The notes under the pieces: generated by a model
Seen by the model: the letters and a program-made list of their open reading frames with translations, nothing else
Database searches by the model: none
Told to the model about the DNA's origin: nothing
Shown: positions 2,767-23,254 of the stretch, in pieces
Numbering within the stretch: the first letter of the stretch is position 1
Layout of the letters: every line of letters begins with the position of its first letter
Source of the DNA: Acidimicrobiia bacterium
Lineage (GTDB): Bacteria > Actinomycetota > Acidimicrobiia > Spongiisociales > Spongiisociaceae
DNA length: 60,337 nucleotides
Assembly (NCBI GenBank): GCA_041576165.1
Contig: JBFGLM010000030.1
Location: 1-60,337, forward strand
Reading direction: 5' to 3'
Position numbers and translations under genes: made by a program

Positions 2767-4182
2767 TCACCCAGCCGGCTCGAGTTGTACCGGATACTCG
2801 CGAACCGCAATCTGCGTGCCATCCTTCGCGGACACGGCCCAGGCGATCAGGGCCCCGGTCTGGGGTGTATCAACCGCATACGGCACGTCCACATCGAAGG
2901 ATGTCCACAGTGGCCCATCGGGAATGGAGATCTGCTCGCCGCCGGCGGTGACCGTCTGCTCGGTCACGATCAGACCGTCGGCATCGACCACCGCAACCTC
3001 GAATGTTGCTTCGAAGGCGGCCGTCCAACCCACCACACGAACCGGATTCGCCGCCTCACCGCCGTACGACGGCCTGTCGACGAATACGAGCGGAAGCTGA
3101 TCGAACAATTCTTCTCGGGAGTTGTAGTCCTCGAGGATGATGCCCTCTCCGCCGAGCACATCGATGGGGTCGCCGTCGAGTTCGAACGCCACCTCGTCGA
3201 CCGTTGAGTACTGCGTGAGAGTGAACACCACCTGCGCAACCCGGCCCAGCATCGAGGCGCTGCCACCCCCCGAAGCGAATGCCCCGGACAAATCGACGGT
3301 TGCCACACCGTCTGCGATGGCAATGCCCAGCAATTCGGTGGATGGGGGCACCTCAGTCGAGATCGGAGGGATCGAGGCAGCCTCGTCGCTGGTGGGACCC
3401 TCGAGTAACGCTCGCATTGTGAAAGTGGCCGGCATGGTTGTGGCCGCGATTCGACGATGCACCGGGACGAGGAAACCTCCCTGCCCCAGCGGATCGTCGC
3501 CGAGTGATCCAAGGAAGAAATAGACGGTTGTGGGCATCGGCACCGGTGGTATCACCGGATCCAATCCGAGAGCCCGGGCGAGGAAGGTGGCCATCTGGCC
3601 TCGGGTCACCGGGATCTGCGGCCGGAACGTGCCATCGCTGAACCCGATCGTGATGCCGTTCTCGGCGATGACGTTGATATTGGCCTCATGAACATTGACG
3701 TCGTCGTCACCAAACCAGTCGCGAGTCGCCGGATCCAGACCCGGCAGCGCCCGCGCCAAAAACGTGGCCATCTGGCCACGAGTCACCGGGATCTGCGGCC
3801 GGAACGTGCCATCGCTGAACCCGATCGTGATGCCGTTCTCGGCGATGACGTTGATATTGGCCTCATGAACATTGGCGTCGTCGTCACCAAACCAGTCGCG
3901 AGTCGCCGGATCCAGACCCGGCAGTGCCCGCGCCAAAAACGAAGCCATCTGCCCACGAGTCACCGGCTCTTGCGGACAGTACCGATCGTCGGTGCAGCCC
4001 ACCGTCAATCCAGCGGCAACGATGGCCTCGATCGCGGGCTCGTGCACGCTTCCGTCGTCGTCTATGAACGTGCCGCCTGGAGGAAGGTCACCCTGTCCGG
4101 CCGCAGGTGCAGCCGGTAGGGCCCCAATCAACACGAGGACCGTCGCAGCGGTCACGAACCTTCGTAGCTTCAACATGCTCAC
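2767..4182 (-). CDS. S-layer homology (3x SLH) protein with GerMN and Gmad2-like Ig domains
   Basis: Signal peptide; three F.DDD...E..I..I...G.T.G...P..PVTRGQMA.FLARAL units; LLEGPT..E / ATVDLS / QVVFTLTQY GerMN signature; AFEATF..AVVDADG C-terminal domain. Confidence 0.9.
   Translation of the reverse strand: MSMLKLRRFVTAATVLVLIGALPAAPAAGQGDLPPGGTFIDDDGSVHEPAIEAIVAAGLTVGCTDDRYCPQEPVTRGQMASFLARALPGLDPATRDWFGDDDANVHEANINVIAENGITIGFSDGTFRPQIPVTRGQMATFLARALPGLDPATRDWFGDDDVNVHEANINVIAENGITIGFSDGTFRPQIPVTRGQMATFLARALGLDPVIPPVPMPTTVYFFLGSLGDDPLGQGGFLVPVHRRIAATTMPATFTMRALLEGPTSDEAASIPPISTEVPPSTELLGIAIADGVATVDLSGAFASGGGSASMLGRVAQVVFTLTQYSTVDEVAFELDGDPIDVLGGEGIILEDYNSREELFDQLPLVFVDRPSYGGEAANPVRVVGWTAAFEATFEVAVVDADGLIVTEQTVTAGGEQISIPDGPLWTSFDVDVPYAVDTPQTGALIAWAVSAKDGTQIAVREYPVQLEPAG
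3587..3940. repeat. Near-perfect 177-bp tandem duplication (2 copies) encoding SLH repeats
   Basis: 3587-3763 vs 3764-3940; I count 4 substitutions, one non-synonymous (A/V). Confidence 0.92.
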
Positions 4183-15256: not shown

Positions 15257-16198
15257 GTGGTCACTCGACGCCGACGCGAAGAATTAGAGGGCTCCGAAGA
15301 TCCGGTACGCCAGTACCTCGATGAGATCGGCGCGTACGACCTCCTCACTGCCGAGGACGAGGTTCGGCTCGCCAAGGCCATCGAGCGGGGTAAGAAAGCC
15401 GAACGCGCGCTGGAGAATCAGTTAGATCTGGGCGACGAGGAGCGGGCGAAGCTCACCGCCGTCGTCCGCAGGGGTCAGGCGGCCCGCCAGACATTCATCC
15501 GCGCCAACCTGCGCCTCGTGGTGTCCATTGCCAAGCGATATGCCCGGTCCGGCCTACCGTTGCTCGACCTGATTCAGGAAGGCAACCTGGGATTGATTCG
15601 GGCGGTCGAAAAGTTCGAGTACCGCAAAGGCTTCAAGTTCTCCACATATGCCACCTGGTGGATCCGTCAAGCGATCACTCGGGCGATCGCCGACAAAGGC
15701 CGGACGATCCGGGTGCCGGTCCACATGATGGACACCATCACCCAGGTGCACGCTACGGAGAACAACTTGCTGAAGCGGCTGGGCCGTAAGCCCACCCCCG
15801 GAGAGATCGCTGAGGAGTCGGGCCTGAGCGAGGCCAAGGTAATGGAAGCGATCAAGGTGTCCCCCGAGCCGGTATCCATCTTCGAGCCCATCGGAGAAGA
15901 TGACGCGGTGCTGGGCGATTTCATCCAGGATTCCGAAGCTGACGCGCCGTTCGATCTGGTAGCCAAAGGTCTCCGGCGTCAAGATCTGGAACGAGTGCTG
16001 GCCAAGCTCAACGAGCGGGAACGAACGGTTCTCACGATGAGGTATGGGCTCGACAACGGAATCCCACGGACGCTCGACGACGTCGGACGCCACTTCAATC
16101 TGACCCGGGAGCGAATCCGCCAGATAGAAGCCAAGGCCCTGGCCAAGCTGCGCCACCCCAGCTCCCCCGGCGGCGCCAAAGGCCTCTTCGCCCTCTAG
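15257..16198 (+). CDS. RpoD/SigA-family sigma-70 factor lacking region 1.1 (probably group 2)
   Basis: [57 protein letters not shown]; only 313 aa. Confidence 0.92.
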
Positions 16199-16294
16199 AT
16201 CGGCTCCGCTGCTCGAACCCGACGACCCAAAGACTGGCACGCTCCTAATCGCGCCTCAATTGGCGTCCGGCGGGGACACGCCGGGCGACGAACC

Positions 16295-16393
16295 ACCAAC
16301 CCGGGCCGAAACCCGCTTGGCGCGCATCGTCAGCCGGCCACAGCAGGAAAACGAGTACGGCCGCGGGCCCTACGACCAACCCGGGCCGAAACC
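16295..16393. repeat. 19-bp direct repeat ACCAACCCGGGCCGAAACC, two copies 80 bp apart
   Basis: Exact copies at 16295-16313 and 16375-16393 between convergent genes. Confidence 0.85.
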
Positions 16394-16405
16394 TGTTCGG
16401 GCCCT

Positions 16406-16864
16406 CTACACGACCATCCAATCGGTCTGAACGGTGGTTTCCTCGACCGTACAGCGGATGCTGACTGGTCCGACGGGAACATCGAGGAACGTGAACCGGC
16501 CCAGGGAGTCCGACGAGGCGTTGCGCACCTCGCCCTGATAGAGGAGCTCGATCTCGGCGGCCTGCGGCGGGACCAGCTGACCTACGAGGCGGCGGGCGCC
16601 TTCCGCCATCACCACCACCTCGATCTCCAAGCCCGGCGCCCGGAAGGTCATCTGGCGCGCCCCGCCGGCAGAGCGAACTCCCGCCAGCTGATCATCAGCC
16701 GAGTCGAACACCAGCTCGGCGAGTTCCGCGTCGATGCTCCGCCAGGTGAAGGCGGCTCGGGCGAATTCGGTTGCCACCGCCGGAACCGGATCCAGCTCGT
16801 CGAGAGTGATACCCAGCTCGGCGAGCAGCTGTTCCTCACTCCAATGCGAAGCATCAACGTTCAT
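16406..16864 (-). CDS. Soluble ECF-associated protein (acidic helical N-terminus, beta-sandwich/carboxypeptidase-regulatory-like C-terminus); putative anti-sigma
   Basis: Overlaps the ECF stop by 11 bp; DPVP...ARAAFTWR.IDAELAEL.FDS, LVGQLVPP, D.LGRF.F..VP.GP; no TM segment. Confidence 0.75.
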   Translation of the reverse strand: MNVDASHWSEEQLLAELGITLDELDPVPAVATEFARAAFTWRSIDAELAELVFDSADDQLAGVRSAGGARQMTFRAPGLEIEVVVMAEGARRLVGQLVPPQAAEIELLYQGEVRNASSDSLGRFTFLDVPVGPVSIRCTVEETTVQTDWMVV

Positions 16865-17423
16865 CGTTCTGGTCCTTTCCTTCTGCCGCCTCCAGCAGCT
16901 GCCGGAGCCGCTTGATGCACCGTCCGCGGGTCGGACCGATGCTCCCTACCGGGCGGCCGATCAGTTGGCTGATCGTTTCGTAGTCGAGTGGTGGGTCGGC
17001 CGTCAGCAAGCGCATGAGCTGCTGACAGTCGTCGCCCAGTGTCTGAAAAGCGCGTGCCATGGCGGCCCGCTCCTCGGAGCTCATCAAACCGTCATCCACC
17101 GGGGCGGCTGAGACGTCTGCAACGTCGTACTCAAAAGCTGAGGGGGTTTGCCGTTTCATCCGATTCAGGGTCCTGATCGACTCGTTGCGGGCCGTGGTTG
17201 CCAGCCACGACGGCAGGCTCTGCGGGTCCCGGATTCGGGCGTGATGTTCAACCAGTCGAAGCCAGACGGTTTGTGTCACGTCGAGCGCCGACGCTTGATC
17301 CAGGCGAAACGAACGCACTACCGACCAGACGAGGCGCTCGTATCGCGCAACGATCGCGTTCCACGCCTCCTGAGAGCCGGTCGCCGCTTCCGCGAGCAGC
17401 TCCGCCACGGATTGACCTTCCAT
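16854..17423 (-). CDS. ECF sigma-70 factor
   Basis: AWNAIVARY, DVTQTVWLRL, WLATTARN (region 2); YETISQLIGRPVGSIGPTRGRCI (region 4). Start chosen from TAGGCT -10 8 nt upstream. Confidence 0.92.
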   Translation of the reverse strand: MEGQSVAELLAEAATGSQEAWNAIVARYERLVWSVVRSFRLDQASALDVTQTVWLRLVEHHARIRDPQSLPSWLATTARNESIRTLNRMKRQTPSAFEYDVADVSAAPVDDGLMSSEERAAMARAFQTLGDDCQQLMRLLTADPPLDYETISQLIGRPVGSIGPTRGRCIKRLRQLLEAAEGKDQNDER

Positions 17424-17553
17424 GGCCGCGCAGCCTAAACGTGTGCCCCGCAGGGCCGCTGTTTCCGATGTCATGGACAAATCTCCATTCCGCCCAGAAC
17501 AGGACTCCGGTCACCCCCGCCAAATACCCCCTTTTCGCCGGTTGTAGCGATGG

Positions 17554-19002
17554 TCACACGAGGTTGATGACCGTTCCCAAATCCGGAAGTCGGAAGAGGC
17601 CATGCCGGTGCACCACCCGATCGGCAGCCGTCGTTGCGTTTGATTTCGATTGCGCCATCTCGGCGGCGATCGCGGCGGCTACCTTCGGCGCCGCAAACGA
17701 GGTACCCGACCACATCGCAAATCCCTCGTAGTCGTCCGGGTCGTCACCCTCAGCGAGTTCGGGCCCGAAGTTGTGGTCGAAGAAGGTGGAGATGACGTCG
17801 ATCCCGGGGGCGCAGGCGTCGACCCACGAGCCGTAGTTGGAGAACCAGGCCCGCTCTGAGCAGTCGAGGGCTCCCACCCCAATCACGTTTTCGAGCGCAG
17901 CCGGCCAAGCCTTCCGACAGGTGTTGCTGTTGCCCGCCGCCGCCACGACCACGGCGCCTTGTGCTGTGAACTCCTCGATGACGGTGGCCAGCAGCGGCGG
18001 CGGCTGGTCGCCCTCTGTGAAACCACTGAGCGACATGTTGATGATTGCGTCGGACAAGTCCCTTCCGTTGCCGGCGAGGCGACGCCGGAACTGGTTGAGC
18101 GACGCGGAAATGGAGGCGTCGTCGCCGTCACCGAAACTGGTGAGGCATCCTTCGATCTCGACGTTGCAGGTCGGCGCCAGCCGTCGCACGATGCCGGCGA
18201 TGAATGTGCCGTGTCCGGCCTGGCGGTCCAGCAGACCGTCACCGTTCTCATCCATGAGGTCCTCGTCGGCGCCTCGCAATACAGCACCCTGCCGGAACCG
18301 CTCGACCACCTCCCATCGGCTGTGCACCGTCACATGCCGCAGGTCCGGATGCGCGGGCCGGCGGCGCCCGCCCCGGACGGTGGTCGTGGCCAGGCCGGTA
18401 TCCAAGACGGCCACGATCGGGTGATCCTTGGGTCTGGTGGAAGGCCACTCCCCCGGTTTGGTCACAGGAACCGCGTTGTTGATGTTGGGGTTGGCGAAGT
18501 AGGCCGGGTTGGCGAAATAGGCCGGGTTGGCGAAGTACGCCGGGTTGGCGAAATAGGCCGGATTGGCGAAGTACGCCGGGTTGGCGAGATAAGCCGGGCT
18601 GCCCTGGAAATCCTGGGCGAAGAAGACGTGGTTGAGCCACGCCTCGGACACGCTGCCGGATGTGCGCAGCTCGCCGACTGCTACCTCCGCCAGGGGCTGA
18701 TCAAAGTTGGCACCGTTCCTCAGGAACAGCAACGATCGTCGGCCCGGCACCCTGATGCTACGAGATACCTCGATTTCGCATCGCGCGAGCACTTCGGTGG
18801 CGGACCCTACTTCCGCCCTGGGCACGATCACCTGGCTGGTCCGATGCGTCGCACCGTCGCTGCTGACGGCGATGCCCCGGTGGGCCAGCTCCCACTGATA
18901 CAGGTTGGCCTGATATCTCAGATGCTCTTCCAGCGGCGCGCTCTCGCCGGGCGGCTCCGGTTGCGGCTCGTTCGTATATCCGTTCGCCTCCTGTTTCGCC
19001 AT
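17554..19002 (-). CDS. Cytoplasmic S8 family subtilase with hexapeptide-repeat insert
   Basis: VAVLDTG (Asp), GHGTFIAG (His), AAAGN (oxyanion), WSGTSFAAP (Ser); no signal peptide; AGGAGG RBS. Confidence 0.93.
   Translation of the reverse strand: MAKQEANGYTNEPQPEPPGESAPLEEHLRYQANLYQWELAHRGIAVSSDGATHRTSQVIVPRAEVGSATEVLARCEIEVSRSIRVPGRRSLLFLRNGANFDQPLAEVAVGELRTSGSVSEAWLNHVFFAQDFQGSPAYLANPAYFANPAYFANPAYFANPAYFANPAYFANPNINNAVPVTKPGEWPSTRPKDHPIVAVLDTGLATTTVRGGRRRPAHPDLRHVTVHSRWEVVERFRQGAVLRGADEDLMDENGDGLLDRQAGHGTFIAGIVRRLAPTCNVEIEGCLTSFGDGDDASISASLNQFRRRLAGNGRDLSDAIINMSLSGFTEGDQPPPLLATVIEEFTAQGAVVVAAAGNSNTCRKAWPAALENVIGVGALDCSERAWFSNYGSWVDACAPGIDVISTFFDHNFGPELAEGDDPDDYEGFAMWSGTSFAAPKVAAAIAAEMAQSKSNATTAADRVVHRHGLFRLPDLGTVINLV
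18487..18594 (-). repeat. 18-bp tandem repeat x6 encoding AY(L/F)ANP
   Basis: SP-AYLANP-(AYFANP)5-NINN; DNA units differ mostly at synonymous positions. Confidence 0.97.
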
Positions 19003-19033
19003 TGTGCAGACCTCCTACCGCGTCGATCGACCA

Positions 19034-19058
19034 GAGCAGTCGGACCTGGCGGTGATAC
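19034..19058 (-). promoter_or_regulatory. Putative ECF promoter of the subtilase gene (GTATCA-N15-GCTC)
   Basis: Same motif and spacing recurs at 21806-21830; lies about 30 nt upstream of the S8 start. Confidence 0.5.
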
Positions 19059-19077
19059 GTCTTCTAGCATCCCGGCG

Positions 19078-21732
19078 ATGTCAGGCGCCGACCCCAATCT
19101 GACACGGGCGCACTCGCTAGTCGAGTCCGCCCAGGGTGACCCGGCTGCAGTCAGAACCGAAGCCGAGGCAATCATCGAAGCTACACCGGGCAGCGCAGCA
19201 GCTGCGGTCGGATTGTGGGCCCGGGGCCTCGCCGAACGTGAACTGGGTGAGCTGGCCGTCGCGCTATCCAGCCTGGAACAGGCCGTCAGCCTGGCCAGCG
19301 AGCTGCAGCGATCGGTGGACGCGGCCCGCATGCGTGAGAGCCTGGCGTTCGCTTTGTTCCTCGCCGGCGAACATCAGGAAGCCCTGCACCAAACGGAGCT
19401 GGCGGCGCGGCATCTCACCGGACCGGATGCCGCCCGGCTGAGGATGCAACAGGGTTTGATCCAACAACGGATGGGCGATCTGGACGCTGCGCTCCGCTCG
19501 TATCGCCACGCACTGGCGGGGCTGTCGCGAGCCGGCGACAAACTGGGCGAGGTGCGGCTTCGCCTCAACCGATCGATCCTTCACTCGTATCGCTGGGATG
19601 TCAGCGCAGCCCTTTCCGACTTGGAACGTGCCCACCAGCTGGCGAAGGAGCTCGGCCAGCGGATGCTGGTCGCGGGATGCGAGCACAACCTCGGTTTCAA
19701 CGAGGGCCGCCGGGGAAACGTGCCGGCCGCGCTGGAATGGTTCGCACGGGCCCGGGAGAGCTACCGGGCCGCCGGTGTGGGGGGCGGCAACGCGGCAGTG
19801 CTCGAAGTCGATCATGCCCAACTCCTGCTGGATGTCGGACTCAGCGAGGAGGCACTGGCGACGGCGCAGCGTGCAGCCGACCTGTTGAGCGACGCCGGCA
19901 ACGAAGCCGACCGATCGGAGGCTGTACTGCTCGCCGCTCAGGCGGCCCTCGCGGCTGATCAGATCGAAACGGCCGGCCGGCTGGCGACGGAGGCCACGGC
20001 CTCATTCTCCCGGCAGCGCCGCGGTGCCTGGCGCACGCTGGCCGAGTACGTCGGATTGCAGGCCCGGTTGGCCGCTCTGATGAGCCGACCTGATCCGGGC
20101 GACGTCGATTCCCGGAATTTGGCAGCAGCCGCCCGCCGGGCCGCCGGCGCGCTGCGTCGTCACGGATGGCAGGTCGAGGCCTTACACGCCCTAACGATTG
20201 AGGCGCGCGCCGAGATCGCAGCCGGCAATCCCCGCCGGGCGCAACGGGTGCTCGACACGGCCGGCGCAGCCCGCCGCCGCGGGACTATCGATCAGCGCAT
20301 GCGGGCCTGGCACGCAACCGCGTTGCTGCGCATGATCGAAGGAAACCGACAAGGTGCCCGCCGGGCGGTGCGGGCCGGGTTGCGCCTGCTCGATGAACAG
20401 CGCTCGAGTCTGGGCGCCACCGAACTGCGGGCTTCCACGGCCGCTCACGGGAGGGACCTGGCGGAGCTGGGCGTGGCAGTAGCGCTGGCCGATGGCCGCC
20501 CGGACCAGCTGCTGGAGTGGGCCGACCGGGCCCGGGCCGGGGCCATACGCCTGCATCCTGCCACCCCGCCGCGAGACCGCCACCTGGCGGCGGACCTCAC
20601 GGAGCTACGGAGGGTCGAACAGGAAGCATCGGAGGCAGCTCTGTCCGGCCTGCCGACCGACCAGCTGATCCGGCGCCGGGCGGCGATCGAGCACCGCATT
20701 CGCAGCCGGGTACGCCAGCATCGGGGAGGAGGTGAGCCGCACACGTCCATTAGGGCCGACCGGATCCGGCACTACCTCGGGCATCGCCGCCTGCTCGAGT
20801 ACGTGGAACACCACGGGCATCTATATGCCGTGACGGCCGATGCCCGCGCGTACGCTCGACACGATCTCGGTCCGGTTGGGGATCTGGGTGAACTGATCGA
20901 CCGGGCCCGCTTCGACCTCAGTCGCCTGGCGCACGGTCGGGGCAGCGGTGCGGCGCAGGAGGCCGCCGAGCGTTCCTTGGCCGACGTGAGCCGCTTGCTC
21001 CAGGTCCGAATCCTCGACCCGATCGCGGCGAACGAAGAGGAGTTGGTGATCGTGCCCGCCGGCCGGCTCCACGGGATGCCATGGCGGGTCCTTCCGGCCC
21101 TGGCCCGGCGCGCCTTCACAGTGGCGCCATCCGCCCACGCCTGGCTCCAGGCACAGTCGCGGCAGCGGCGAGCACCGGCCGCCGGCATCCTGCTGATTGC
21201 CGGCCCCGATCTAGACCATGGCGCCCGGGAAGTCGCATCGATCGCGCGGCTCTACGACCGAGCGACGCGCCTGAGCGGTCGCAATGCCACGGTTGACCGG
21301 GCGCTGGAGGCGCTCGAGCTTACGCCCAGCGCCCACATCGTGGCGCACGGACACTTCCGGGCCGACAATCCGATGTTCTCATCCCTGCAGATGTCTGATG
21401 GTCCGCTCACCGTGTACGACATGGAGCGGCTCAAGCGGGTTCCCCAAACGATCACTCTGCCCGCATGCGACGCAGCCGTCACCGGCCTGCGGCCCGGCGA
21501 CGAACTATTGGGCCTGGCGGCTGCGCTGGTTGCGTTGGGCGTGCGAACGCTGATCGTGCCCCAGGTGCCTATTCCCGACGCGGATACTCCGGCGTTGATG
21601 CGCGCCTTGCATCGCAACCTGCTGCGCGGGTTGTCCCCGAGCCGGGCGCTGGCGGAGGCCGTGGTTACGGCCGACCGGTCCTCCCCGGCTGCCCGCTCTA
21701 CGGCGATGTCTTTCATCGTCATGGGGGCCTAG
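19078..21732 (+). CDS. TPR repeat - CHAT domain (caspase-fold, clan CD) protease
   Basis: Ala/Leu-rich TPR-like helices; LVIVP.G.LHGMPW, AHIVAHG (His), TLPACD (Cys), GDELLGL, FIVMG. Start at ATG 19078, 7 nt after TAGCAT. Confidence 0.92.
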   Translation: MSGADPNLTRAHSLVESAQGDPAAVRTEAEAIIEATPGSAAAAVGLWARGLAERELGELAVALSSLEQAVSLASELQRSVDAARMRESLAFALFLAGEHQEALHQTELAARHLTGPDAARLRMQQGLIQQRMGDLDAALRSYRHALAGLSRAGDKLGEVRLRLNRSILHSYRWDVSAALSDLERAHQLAKELGQRMLVAGCEHNLGFNEGRRGNVPAALEWFARARESYRAAGVGGGNAAVLEVDHAQLLLDVGLSEEALATAQRAADLLSDAGNEADRSEAVLLAAQAALAADQIETAGRLATEATASFSRQRRGAWRTLAEYVGLQARLAALMSRPDPGDVDSRNLAAAARRAAGALRRHGWQVEALHALTIEARAEIAAGNPRRAQRVLDTAGAARRRGTIDQRMRAWHATALLRMIEGNRQGARRAVRAGLRLLDEQRSSLGATELRASTAAHGRDLAELGVAVALADGRPDQLLEWADRARAGAIRLHPATPPRDRHLAADLTELRRVEQEASEAALSGLPTDQLIRRRAAIEHRIRSRVRQHRGGGEPHTSIRADRIRHYLGHRRLLEYVEHHGHLYAVTADARAYARHDLGPVGDLGELIDRARFDLSRLAHGRGSGAAQEAAERSLADVSRLLQVRILDPIAANEEELVIVPAGRLHGMPWRVLPALARRAFTVAPSAHAWLQAQSRQRRAPAAGILLIAGPDLDHGAREVASIARLYDRATRLSGRNATVDRALEALELTPSAHIVAHGHFRADNPMFSSLQMSDGPLTVYDMERLKRVPQTITLPACDAAVTGLRPGDELLGLAAALVALGVRTLIVPQVPIPDADTPALMRALHRNLLRGLSPSRALAEAVVTADRSSPAARSTAMSFIVMGA

Positions 21733-21805
21733 ACGCCGGCACCCGAGGGGCAGCGGTGAAAAGAGGAACGCGGTCCGGGCATGAGATCTGCTTTTCAACA
21801 AACCT

Positions 21806-21830
21806 GTATCACACGGCCCGTTCTGAACTC
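21806..21830 (+). promoter_or_regulatory. Putative ECF promoter (GTATCA-N15-ACTC) downstream of the CHAT gene
   Basis: Matches the motif upstream of the subtilase; followed by about 115 nt ending in a hairpin. Confidence 0.45.
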
Positions 21831-21914
21831 CTATGCTTGAGCCAAGGAACAAGGGGGTGGCTCGGCAGGGCCCGCCAAACTCGGGGGTACGGTGGGTCGC
21901 TGCGATGTGGCTGC

Positions 21915-21944
21915 GGAGGCTGGATCCGGGGGGATCCGGCCTCC
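21915..21944. terminator. Hairpin, possible terminator
   Basis: ggaggctggatcc-gggg-ggatccggcctcc 13-bp stem with one G-U pair. Confidence 0.6.
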
Positions 21945-22069
21945 CGGCCCGCTCAGCTTCCCCCTCGTAGCGTTCTATCGCTCCCGCGGAGTGCATCCCC
22001 CGTGGCGAGCGAGGTGGCGGGTGCCGGCTGCAGCGGCACCCGCCCCACTTCTAGGCCGGTCCCGGCCGC

Positions 22070-23254
22070 CTATCCGGTCCGCACCGCCTGCGCGGGCGGG
22101 ATCTGCGAGGCCCGCATCGCCGGATAGAGCCCGGCGACAGCCCCGATCAGCAACGCCGCGCCCACACTGGCCAGCAGTCCGTCGATTGGTACCGCAAGCG
22201 TGAGATCTTGGGACGCGGCGTAGCCAATGGTGATAGCCGCGCCCAGGATCGTGCCAATGATGCCCCCGACGCCGGCCAGCAGCACCGCCTCCAGCAGGAA
22301 CTGGATACGGATGTGACGTTTGGTGGCGCCGAGCGCCCTCCGCACGCCGACCTCCATGCGCCGCTCTAGCACCGACATGACCATGATGTTGGCTATCGCA
22401 ACGCCACCTACCAGCAGAGCGACCGAGCCGAGACCGATCAGCAATCGGGTCAACGCCGTCTCGGCGGCTTCCCGCGCGGCCAGGGCATCAGACGGTCGCG
22501 TCACCGCAACCCTGTCGGGGTTCTCCGGGTTCACTGTCGAAGGAATCACCTCGACGACATCGTTGACCTCGGAGAGCGCAGCCCGTGCGTACAAGGCGGT
22601 CGGTCGCAGGTCCGGATCGAACAGCGTCCTCGCCACACCCTCCCCGATCAGTACCGACCGCTCGATATCCGGGTAGAGCGTGGCCTCATCCAGGATGCCG
22701 ATCACGGCAAACCGGGTATTGCCGATCACGACTGTGGCGCCGATGTCCAGATCGACCAGCCCTAGGCGCTCTGCGGCCGTGTAGCCCAGCACGGCGGCCG
22801 GCACCTGGGCGGTGGCGGCGTCCAGGAATCTGCCGTCGAGGATATCGATCGCCAGCACTTCGGGCAGCTCCGGCCGGGTGGCCAGCACCGAGATCCCGCC
22901 CGTCTCCAGGTCCGGAATCAGCTCGTTCTTCCTCACCGACGCGTCGATCAGGCTCGTGGCCGACACGCGCTGGATCGGCCCGACCCGACCCAGCATCTCC
23001 GGCGACTCCTGCGGCAGGTCCAGAGCCTCGCCAAACACGCCCTGGCCGGGGGTGACGCGTAGCAGGTTCGTGCCGAGCCGGTCGAGGGCGGCGAGCAAGT
23101 CGGCCCGCCCGGAGGCGGAGATGCCGAGCACCGCCACGATCGCGGCGATCCCGATGGCGATGCCCAGAGCCGTGAGCGCCGAGCGCCCGGGGCGAGCTCG
23201 TAAGCCGGTGAGACCGAGGTCGACGGCATCGGCGAACCTGAGCCGGCTCTTCAC
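22070..23254 (-). CDS. ABC transporter permease, MacB/FtsX family
   Basis: RSALTALGIAIGIAA, large extracytoplasmic loop, VGGVAIANIMVMSVLERRMEVGVRRALGA, GLYPAMRA. Confidence 0.93.
   Translation of the reverse strand: MKSRLRFADAVDLGLTGLRARPGRSALTALGIAIGIAAIVAVLGISASGRADLLAALDRLGTNLLRVTPGQGVFGEALDLPQESPEMLGRVGPIQRVSATSLIDASVRKNELIPDLETGGISVLATRPELPEVLAIDILDGRFLDAATAQVPAAVLGYTAAERLGLVDLDIGATVVIGNTRFAVIGILDEATLYPDIERSVLIGEGVARTLFDPDLRPTALYARAALSEVNDVVEVIPSTVNPENPDRVAVTRPSDALAAREAAETALTRLLIGLGSVALLVGGVAIANIMVMSVLERRMEVGVRRALGATKRHIRIQFLLEAVLLAGVGGIIGTILGAAITIGYAASQDLTLAVPIDGLLASVGAALLIGAVAGLYPAMRASQIPPAQAVRTG

Follow-up and report, generated by a model that had tools for sequence, protein, structure and literature searches.

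How is a sigma factor of the extracytoplasmic function (ECF) type controlled when its gene is accompanied by those of two proteases and a small soluble protein? The question is raised by a locus in contig JBFGLM010000030.1 of an Acidimicrobiia bacterium (assembly GCA_041576165.1), of which a stretch of 60,337 nt, hereafter the window, was analysed. The locus codes for a caspase-like protease combining tetratricopeptide repeats with a CHAT domain (TPR-CHAT), a subtilase of the S8 family, the ECF sigma factor and the small protein. The module is real and widespread. As the best explanation of the whole we tentatively propose an ECF54-type switch, in which a sigma factor and its anti-sigma factor are both cytoplasmic and are wired to the two proteases. 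The four genes are arranged as follows:

16406..16864, minus strand: gene for the small soluble protein (152 aa), from the open reading frame (ORF) and its translation
16854..17480, minus strand: ECF sigma factor gene (ORF, Pfam, NCBIfam); long form from TTG 17480, probable short form from ATG 17423 (residue 20)
17554..19002, minus strand: S8 subtilase gene, product a putative pro-subtilase (482 aa; ORF, Pfam)
19078..21732, plus strand: TPR-CHAT caspase-like protease gene (884 aa; ORF, Pfam); TPR region approximately 1-560, CHAT domain 643-867, catalytic dyad H757/C797

All four ORFs have the codon-position GC pattern of real genes, and CHAT, S8 and the small protein are each encoded once in the 5.1-Mb, 161-contig genome. 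The small gene follows the sigma gene with an overlap of 11 nt, and the S8 and TPR-CHAT genes stand head-to-head with 75 bp between them (19003-19077); both arrangements had been noted in the first-pass annotation, made from the sequence alone. The module end that it gave, 21944, was misplaced, lying 212 nt past the CHAT stop codon at 21732. None of the four proteins showed an N-terminal hydrophobic stretch in a crude hydropathy scan, nor, the CHAT core aside, a signal-like or membrane segment. They are thus probably all cytoplasmic, as had been supposed at first.

Conservation of the module was followed in three sets of loci. The first comprised 80 loci seeded by the alignment of the small-protein family and four seeded by CHAT (84 in total), the second the best 80 of at least 587 sigma relatives from species-representative genomes (seeded by the sigma alignment and fetched with 6-kb flanks), and the third 20 loci from other classes of the phylum (tblastn at E ≤ 0.001). 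All four genes were present in 57 of the 84 loci; sigma, small and CHAT genes were found in 12 others, sigma and small genes only in 14 and the small gene only in one. The best 80 sigma-seeded loci contained all four genes in 46 cases, the small and sigma genes with CHAT in 16, with S8 in three and with neither in nine, while sigma stood alone in six. Fourteen of the 20 loci from other classes had the complete set. The co-occurrence for which the first-pass annotation proposed a neighbourhood search is thus found, in shuffled orders. Already among the four closest CHAT relatives in species-representative genomes the other three genes are always present and their order differs, and at least seven gene orders were counted across the loci. 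The commonest one, S8 divergent from CHAT-sigma-small, occurs in 29 loci, and the order seen in the window, CHAT divergent from S8-sigma-small, in 10. Two features persist through these rearrangements: S8 and CHAT are nearly always adjacent and divergent, and the small gene lies directly 3' of sigma in nearly every locus of the small/CHAT- and sigma-seeded sets.

The small-protein family was found in 30 of 301 sampled genomes of the class and in 43 of 401 sampled Actinomycetota genomes, a tally that includes genome G000 and the unpublished genome G462. Its distribution is patchy, with presence differing within genera. Record titles of the loci are almost all those of Actinomycetota, including the cultured and tractable genera Amycolatopsis, Micromonospora, Dactylosporangium and Catellatospora. 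Three metagenome-assembled genomes labelled Acidobacteriota (L114, L115, L117) carry a sigma gene whose product is 53-57% identical to that of the window, together with the small gene and CHAT; they represent either transfer beyond Actinomycetota or mis-binning. One locus (L099, G415:C3) has two S8-CHAT pairs in tandem within 12 kb, in a genome with two small-protein matches, which looks like a local duplication of the protease pair.

The sigma protein gives a Sigma70_r2 match in Pfam (8.8e-13) and matches NCBIfam TIGR02937 (sigma70-ECF) at 3.4e-21 over residues 38-196; its matches among solved structures are generic ECF ones. An actinobacterial neighbourhood of a carboxypeptidase-regulatory-like protein, a subtilase and CHAT has already been catalogued as that of group ECF54, according to the available parts of a review (PMC8999054, citing Huang et al. 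2015 and Casas-Pastor et al. 2021) and of the classification of Casas-Pastor et al. (PMC7826278). The window and its relatives show the same conserved context, and we call the module ECF54-type on the basis of gene context and taxonomy. The same classification mentions a 4Fe-4S protein near ECF54 genes, which may not be a defining feature of the group. None is encoded among the 10 neighbours scanned (9.7-27.9 kb). The neighbourhood itself is not new; the first-pass annotation was accurate in pointing to similar actinobacterial neighbourhoods of undescribed mechanism and overrated their novelty, as the group had already been named. We found neither an experimental study nor a characterised ECF54 member in the literature. 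What is added here are testable predictions of the roles of the genes, all of them computational.

The first of these predictions concerns the small protein. Its family comprises 845 clusters at E ≤ 0.001, in which all members that bear a name are annotated as hypothetical. The window protein has a sub-threshold Pfam match to CarboxypepD_reg, a non-catalytic beta-sandwich domain, and all 32 aligned members match the same family (best 1e-6), which accounts for the “carboxypeptidase” label used in the literature. Modelled alone with AlphaFold2 (AF2), the protein has helices at 10-24 and 29-38, a low-confidence stretch at 40-66 and a sandwich at 68-151 (mean pLDDT 70.4). The low-confidence stretch holds the most conserved motif of the family, W-R-x-x-D-A-E-L-A-E-L-V-F-D-S. 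Neither a Foldseek search of this model against the PDB, which returned only generic Ig-like sandwiches and nothing at E ≤ 0.001, nor a profile search of PDB sequences (best E = 0.31) has found a closer relative. Two candidate identities were rejected: a Csx30 relative, as the size differs and there is no family match, and a zinc anti-sigma factor, as the zinc-binding H-x3-C-x2-C motif is absent from the window protein and there is no family match either.

The small protein was also modelled together with sigma. The complex reached an ipSAE of 0.85 in each of three runs, compared with 0.00 for the best of three controls; this mark is reached by 58 of 80 solved complexes and two of 110 mismatched pairs, a calibration that holds only roughly since our own alignments were used. 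The runs share at least 75% of contacts, with a partner pLDDT of 83. Residues 5-57 of the small protein contact sigma-2 (32-107) and sigma-4 (137-200). In class I anti-sigma factors, of which solved examples exist, a helical domain is bound between sigma-2 and sigma-4, and the modelled complex has this geometry. The small protein is probably the missing anti-sigma factor, as judged from the model, and the first-pass idea of the overlapping gene encoding a sigma partner has gained in substance. With ECF54 as published the module shares the gene context and the proposal of proteolytic control; the difference is that the literature gives the group no anti-sigma factor, while here the carboxypeptidase-like protein is modelled as one.

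The second prediction concerns transcription. A family consensus, GTATCA-N16-CTC, was first spotted on reading the regions upstream of sigma. Scored as GTAT[CT][ACT]-N16-[ACG]TC in a sigma-upstream set of 83 loci and the window, it occurs on the sense strand of 63 of the 84 regions, against nine on the antisense strand; 200 shuffles gave 0.51 on average and 2 at most. The pattern also precedes S8 in 23 of 57 loci; ahead of CHAT it was seen in only two of 69, both times about 384 nt away. The promoter-like elements of the window are:

17502..17527, minus strand: sigma-type promoter P1 of the sigma gene, GTATTT-N16-GTCC, a weak variant (motif match)
17432..17437, minus strand: TAGGCT, a -10 box of the housekeeping type located 8 nt ahead of ATG 17423; candidate P2, from which a leaderless short sigma would be made (inferred from the sequence)
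19033..19058, minus strand: sigma-type promoter of S8, GTATCA-N16-CTCT, ending 30 nt before the ATG with a GGAGG ribosome-binding site between
19065..19070, plus strand: TAGCAT, a -10 box of the housekeeping type located 7 nt ahead of the CHAT ATG; candidate constitutive promoter of a leaderless transcript
21806..21830, plus strand: third sigma-type motif, GTATCA-N16-ACTC, directed away from CHAT and 74 nt beyond its stop codon

The S8 promoter site has the second-best position weight matrix score among 15 strict hits in the genome, and its position, along with the motif in the other S8 loci, fits the sigma feedback on subtilase transcription suggested by the first-pass annotation. A TAnnnT box followed 5-9 nt on by an in-frame start was found for 25 of 58 CHAT orthologues and for none of the nine testable S8 orthologues. 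We read this distribution as a constitutive CHAT and a sigma-dependent expression of sigma, anti-sigma and S8.

No convincing ORF follows the third motif (21806..21830). A sigma-type motif is located 6-53 nt past the CHAT stop in 11 of the 23 loci where sigma does not follow CHAT (among them L015, L017, L018, L022, L024, L028, L029 and L079), and in a single group of related loci some 140 nt of conserved non-coding sequence come after it. Rfam gave no match at the gathering score in eight related loci. The motif could belong to a sigma-dependent small RNA or be a relic of an ancestral CHAT-sigma junction.

The sigma gene itself appears to have two promoters and two protein isoforms. The long form starts in the window at TTG 17480, behind a GGAG. 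Among the 63 loci with P1, an in-frame start 3-15 nt past its -10 element, the position expected of a leaderless transcript, is present in 46 and would add 14-29 residues, while 59 have TAnnnT at the position of window residue 20, mostly exactly 8 nt before an in-frame ATG or GTG; both arrangements occur in 43. The layout, known here from sequence alone, resembles the dual-promoter, dual-isoform layout of sigma-R, whose induced long isoform is unstable (PMC7826278, in the part available).

This likeness favours a different account, the one published for ECF54. The review PMC8999054, in its available part, proposes proteolytic control of the ECF54 sigma: there would be no anti-sigma factor and the proteases would hold the sigma level down through degradation or, in a variant modelled on sigma-R, the induced subtilase would remove an unstable long isoform in a negative feedback. 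The excerpted classification of Casas-Pastor et al. (PMC7826278) agrees in placing ECF54 among the groups without a putative anti-sigma factor. We consider this account quite improbable, as the confident sigma/small-protein interface and the near-obligate pairing of the two genes argue for an anti-sigma factor. The N-terminal extension of sigma has no sequence conservation evident by eye, and the feedback variant is compatible with the anti-sigma switch that we prefer, without replacing it.

Does the switch need the proteases at all? They could be mere cargo: the signal would then arrive via the small protein's beta-sandwich or by way of sigma's redox or folding state, S8 would be a regulon member with an ordinary proteolytic task, and CHAT would be linked but functionally separate. 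Some loci have sigma and the small gene without proteases, and clustering of all ORFs from the 84 loci and the window has found no fifth gene family in more than 16 loci, hence no conserved gene pointing to another output. Telling regulators from targets has also been described as difficult in contexts of this kind (PMC7826278, in the part available). Against this, CHAT linkage survives the at least seven rearrangements, and in 29 loci CHAT lies immediately upstream of sigma on the same strand. As the sigma motif is missing upstream of CHAT, CHAT is not expected to be a sigma target. The strict conservation of both active sites and the pairing of their genes suggest a joint function, so that the cargo view appears improbable to us.

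The TPR-CHAT protein matches the CHAT family of Pfam at 6.8e-29 and has TPR matches and no other Pfam domain. H757 is conserved in 56 of 56 and C797 in 55 of 56 aligned orthologues; the His/Cys dyad that the first-pass annotation described as intact in this 884-aa protein is indeed so. A phmmer search of all solved chains returned only TPR proteins at E ≤ 0.1 and no solved protease chain. The annotation's analogy with Craspase holds for the logic of the circuit and does not extend to the sequence of CHAT.

In type III-E Craspase loci (Csx29, Csx30, Csx31, CASP-sigma), according to the excerpted source, a TPR-CHAT protein is encoded next to an ECF-like sigma factor and its inhibitor, autoregulatory sigma motifs are present in the locus, and cleavage of the sigma-binding inhibitor Csx30 is proposed to free the sigma factor (PMC10028731). 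Unlike these loci, the window has no Cas7-11 among the scanned neighbours, no CRISPR array and no RNA guide. Our TPR-CHAT shares domain types only with Csx29, having no sequence match at E ≤ 0.1 to any solved protease chain; the putative inhibitor, at 152 aa, is not of Csx30 size, and the locus encodes a subtilase, with no Csx31-like gene found. The first-pass annotation was right about the lack of CRISPR features: no CRISPR-like array was found in the whole 60-kb window, and the scan of the 10 neighbours showed neither a cas gene nor an NTPase sensor, the sole ATPase there being part of an ABC transporter.

Similar logic has been described for CalpL/CalpT/CalpS, where a protease cuts an anti-sigma-like inhibitor and frees an ECF sigma factor, and for a Haliangium type III-B system in which SAVED-CHAT cleaves and activates PCaspase, which in turn cuts a sigma factor and an inhibitor, leading to abortive infection (both in the available part of bioRxiv 2023.06.23.546230). 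As in the latter, the gene of a CHAT protease is grouped here with those of another protease, a sigma factor and a small, putative inhibitor. Here, however, the sensor is TPR instead of SAVED, hence without cyclic-oligonucleotide input, the second protease is a serine subtilase instead of a caspase, there is no kinase, and the second protease is apparently downstream of sigma transcriptionally. The TPR-CHAT anti-sigma factor DdvA of Myxococcus xanthus controls a defence island (PMC11506125, in the part available). Both DdvA-DdvS and our module tie TPR-CHAT to control of an ECF sigma factor. DdvA is a single transmembrane protein with a zinc anti-sigma domain fused to a periplasmic TPR-CHAT, whereas here CHAT is separate, soluble and probably cytoplasmic and the probable anti-sigma factor has no zinc motif.

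The second protease is a Peptidase_S8 member (Pfam, 1.1e-21). D201, H264 and S435, together with the oxyanion residue N358, are invariant in 52 of 52 aligned orthologues, in agreement with the full triad claimed at first, and the claimed absence of a signal peptide agrees with the hydropathy scan. A secreted subtilase was rejected: the window protein lacks a signal-like segment, and just one of 57 orthologues has a hydrophobic 19-mer that exceeds the threshold. In the AF2 model (pTM 0.88) residues 24-128 form a beta-alpha-beta-beta-alpha-beta domain and 133-160 a low-confidence stretch, beyond which lies the catalytic domain, giving a layout of putative prodomain (approximately 24-128), tandem-repeat linker (approximately 140-175) and catalytic domain (from about 195). 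Best Foldseek matches of the model are unprocessed pro-subtilisins and PCSK9, over about 465 columns that include the prodomain. Pfam detects no I9 domain in the protein; on the modelled fold S8 may be a zymogen with an I9-like prodomain. Its linker contains a conspicuous repeat:

18488..18598, minus strand: 18-nt tandem repeat, 6.2 copies, encoding (NPAYFA)x6 (Tandem Repeats Finder and direct repeats)

The (NPAYFA)x6 array lies between a conserved P-N-H-V-F-F-A strand and the catalytic domain. Orthologues have arrays of the same class (Pro, any residue, aromatic) in the same place, with 3 to about 14 units and a unit that differs by orthologue: NPSFFG, NPTYLG, NPQYLG, SPTFLG, GNPGVI, three ADPMHF, TPVYA, SPFHA or NPLHA. 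The longest are of NPAFA (up to about 14 copies) and SPVYA (about 13). Three or more copies were counted in at least 26 of the 73 family members evaluated, a lower bound, since the census left out 23 of 96 sequences (including L031 and L032, with repeats visible by eye) and missed longer imperfect repeats such as those of ADPMHF. What follows the array, A-V-P-V in the window and S-T-A-R-P in most orthologues, stands where the mature N-terminus would be. A classical subtilisin junction consists of a small residue, an aromatic P1 and then Ala. This suggests that each unit is a copy of an autoprocessing or pseudo-substrate site.

We know of no described equivalent of this Pro-x-aromatic array at the junction, and none was returned by a literature search, which was aimed at the LIPY motif. 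Intracellular subtilisins have a short N-terminal pro-peptide whose proline-aromatic motif LIPY is said to be inhibitory (PMC6220982, in the part available). The window protein shares the S8 domain and, as modelled, a candidate inhibitory prodomain at the N-terminus with pro-subtilisins, and the lack of a signal peptide with intracellular subtilisins; the tandem array sets it apart. Many S8 orthologues (P0163, P0187, P0191, P0204, P0208, P0226, P0228 and others) have a cysteine-rich C-C-P-P-H-P just before the repeats, absent from the window protein, which may be a metal or redox site. The inhibitor of the Bacillus intracellular subtilisin Isp1 reportedly has an all-beta Ig-like fold (PMC3901451, in the part available), and by analogy the beta-sandwich of our small protein (68-151) might likewise bind the subtilase.

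The zymogen-like layout brings in a two-step cascade, in which CHAT would activate S8 by cutting in or near the repeat linker and the subtilase would then destroy the anti-sigma factor, perhaps along with many cell proteins. The nearly constant adjacency of the divergent S8 and CHAT genes speaks for it, as do the putative prodomain and conserved linker of S8, with S-T-A-R-P after the repeats in most orthologues, and the precedent of PCaspase activation by SAVED-CHAT (bioRxiv 2023.06.23.546230, in the part available). S8 nevertheless looks sigma-dependent, so that, barring a basal pool of the enzyme, it would act downstream of the release of sigma, and CHAT occurs without a detectable S8 in 16 of the 80 sigma-seeded loci. 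We regard the cascade as unlikely.

The switch that we prefer would operate as follows. At rest, the small protein would block sigma, with its N-terminal helices inserted between sigma domains 2 and 4. TPR-CHAT, supplied constitutively by a housekeeping and probably leaderless promoter, would read a cue via its TPR region of about 560 residues and, once triggered, would inactivate the anti-sigma factor. The likeliest cut site would be the conserved and disordered stretch at approximately 40-66 of the small protein, between the helices and the sandwich. Freed sigma would then transcribe its own operon and the pro-subtilase from GTATCA-N16-CTC promoters, making the subtilase zymogen the main output and possibly a shut-off device. 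Computation supports the linkage, the active sites, the modelled sigma/anti-sigma interface and the distribution of promoters; the cue, the CHAT substrate and the maturation and targets of the subtilase are what we infer.

Several observations weigh against this proposal. Part of the score of the complex may come from solved ECF/anti-sigma pairs that the model remembers; none of the 32 small-protein members matches an anti-sigma Pfam family at E ≤ 1, and ECF54 is listed without an anti-sigma factor in the excerpted classification (PMC8999054, PMC7826278). Sigma and the small gene lack a protease in the fetched flanks of 14 of the 80 small-seeded and nine of the 80 sigma-seeded loci. As to the promoters, 34 of 57 S8 genes have no motif in the upstream stretch searched, and the sigma promoter of the locus itself is off consensus (GTATTT, GTCC). 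The 15 strict genome-wide hits are close to the approximately 16 expected by chance from base-composition arithmetic, and for this reason we draw no regulon beyond S8 and sigma.

The 10 scanned neighbours of the module encode FabH, a sigma-70-family protein, an SH3/SLH protein, an ABC exporter set, a histidine kinase, an alpha/beta hydrolase and two products without a Pfam match. The sigma-70-family gene (15257-16198, plus strand) is full-length (regions 1.2, 2, 3 and 4), adjoins the module and is convergent with it. Rfam gave no match within 16000-22300 at E ≤ 1. Between the converging 3' ends of the small and sigma-70-family genes lies the following element, probably the end of the operon:

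16358..16378, minus strand: terminator-like hairpin 3' of the small gene (consensus match only; four in the region against a shuffle mean of 2.4)

The same gap contains two copies of a 41-nt direct repeat (16280-16320 and 16360-16400; 78% identical, 80 nt apart), the second of which overlaps the hairpin. Elsewhere in the window, a 177-nt tandem repeat is located at 3587-4062 (2.1-2.7 copies, 84-96% matches).

What is such a switch for? Whatever its wiring, the module could be an anti-phage or cell-fate system acting through abortive infection or dormancy, with the intracellular subtilase as effector. Its patchy distribution, variable within genera, would suit this, as would the rapid diversification of the linker repeats and a circuit logic shared with the CRISPR-linked protease/sigma modules and DdvA (bioRxiv 2023.06.23.546230, PMC10028731 and PMC11506125, as far as their available parts go). 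On the other hand, PADLOC found no system-level defence match at the locus, only a generic subtilase hit (3.5e-9), the neighbours in the window (FabH, the sigma-70-family gene, the ABC exporter and the histidine kinase) are housekeeping-like, and clustering of all ORFs from the 84 loci and the window revealed no recurrent defence gene beside the module. A defence or cell-fate role of this kind is on balance unlikely in our estimate. The biological role may lie in defence, stress or development, among which the parallels with Craspase, CalpL/T/S and DdvA and the patchiness keep defence plausible.

A bolder, and distinctly unlikely, possibility is a guide-free circuit of cell fate in Actinomycetota, running from the caspase-like protease through sigma to the subtilase. 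TPR-CHAT would cut a new class of soluble anti-sigma factors on a cue of danger inside the cell or of development, sigma would then fill the cell with the zymogen, whose tandem pseudo-substrate array would serve as a counted fuse or tripwire (for its own stepwise activation or for a foreign protease), and an unstable long sigma isoform would be the off-switch. If so, the protease/sigma arms of type III CRISPR systems would have a free-standing ancestor or cousin in this circuit.

ECF54 has been flagged as a group without a known regulator and has no characterised member. For it our analysis offers a concrete and cheap hypothesis: the carboxypeptidase-like protein would be the anti-sigma factor, CHAT the constitutive sensor and the subtilase the sigma-driven output. 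If this is true, sigma factors released by proteases, which have so far been linked to type III CRISPR loci, would also exist as stand-alone cytoplasmic switches, and a new anti-sigma fold and an unusual repeat-gated zymogen would be added to their repertoire.

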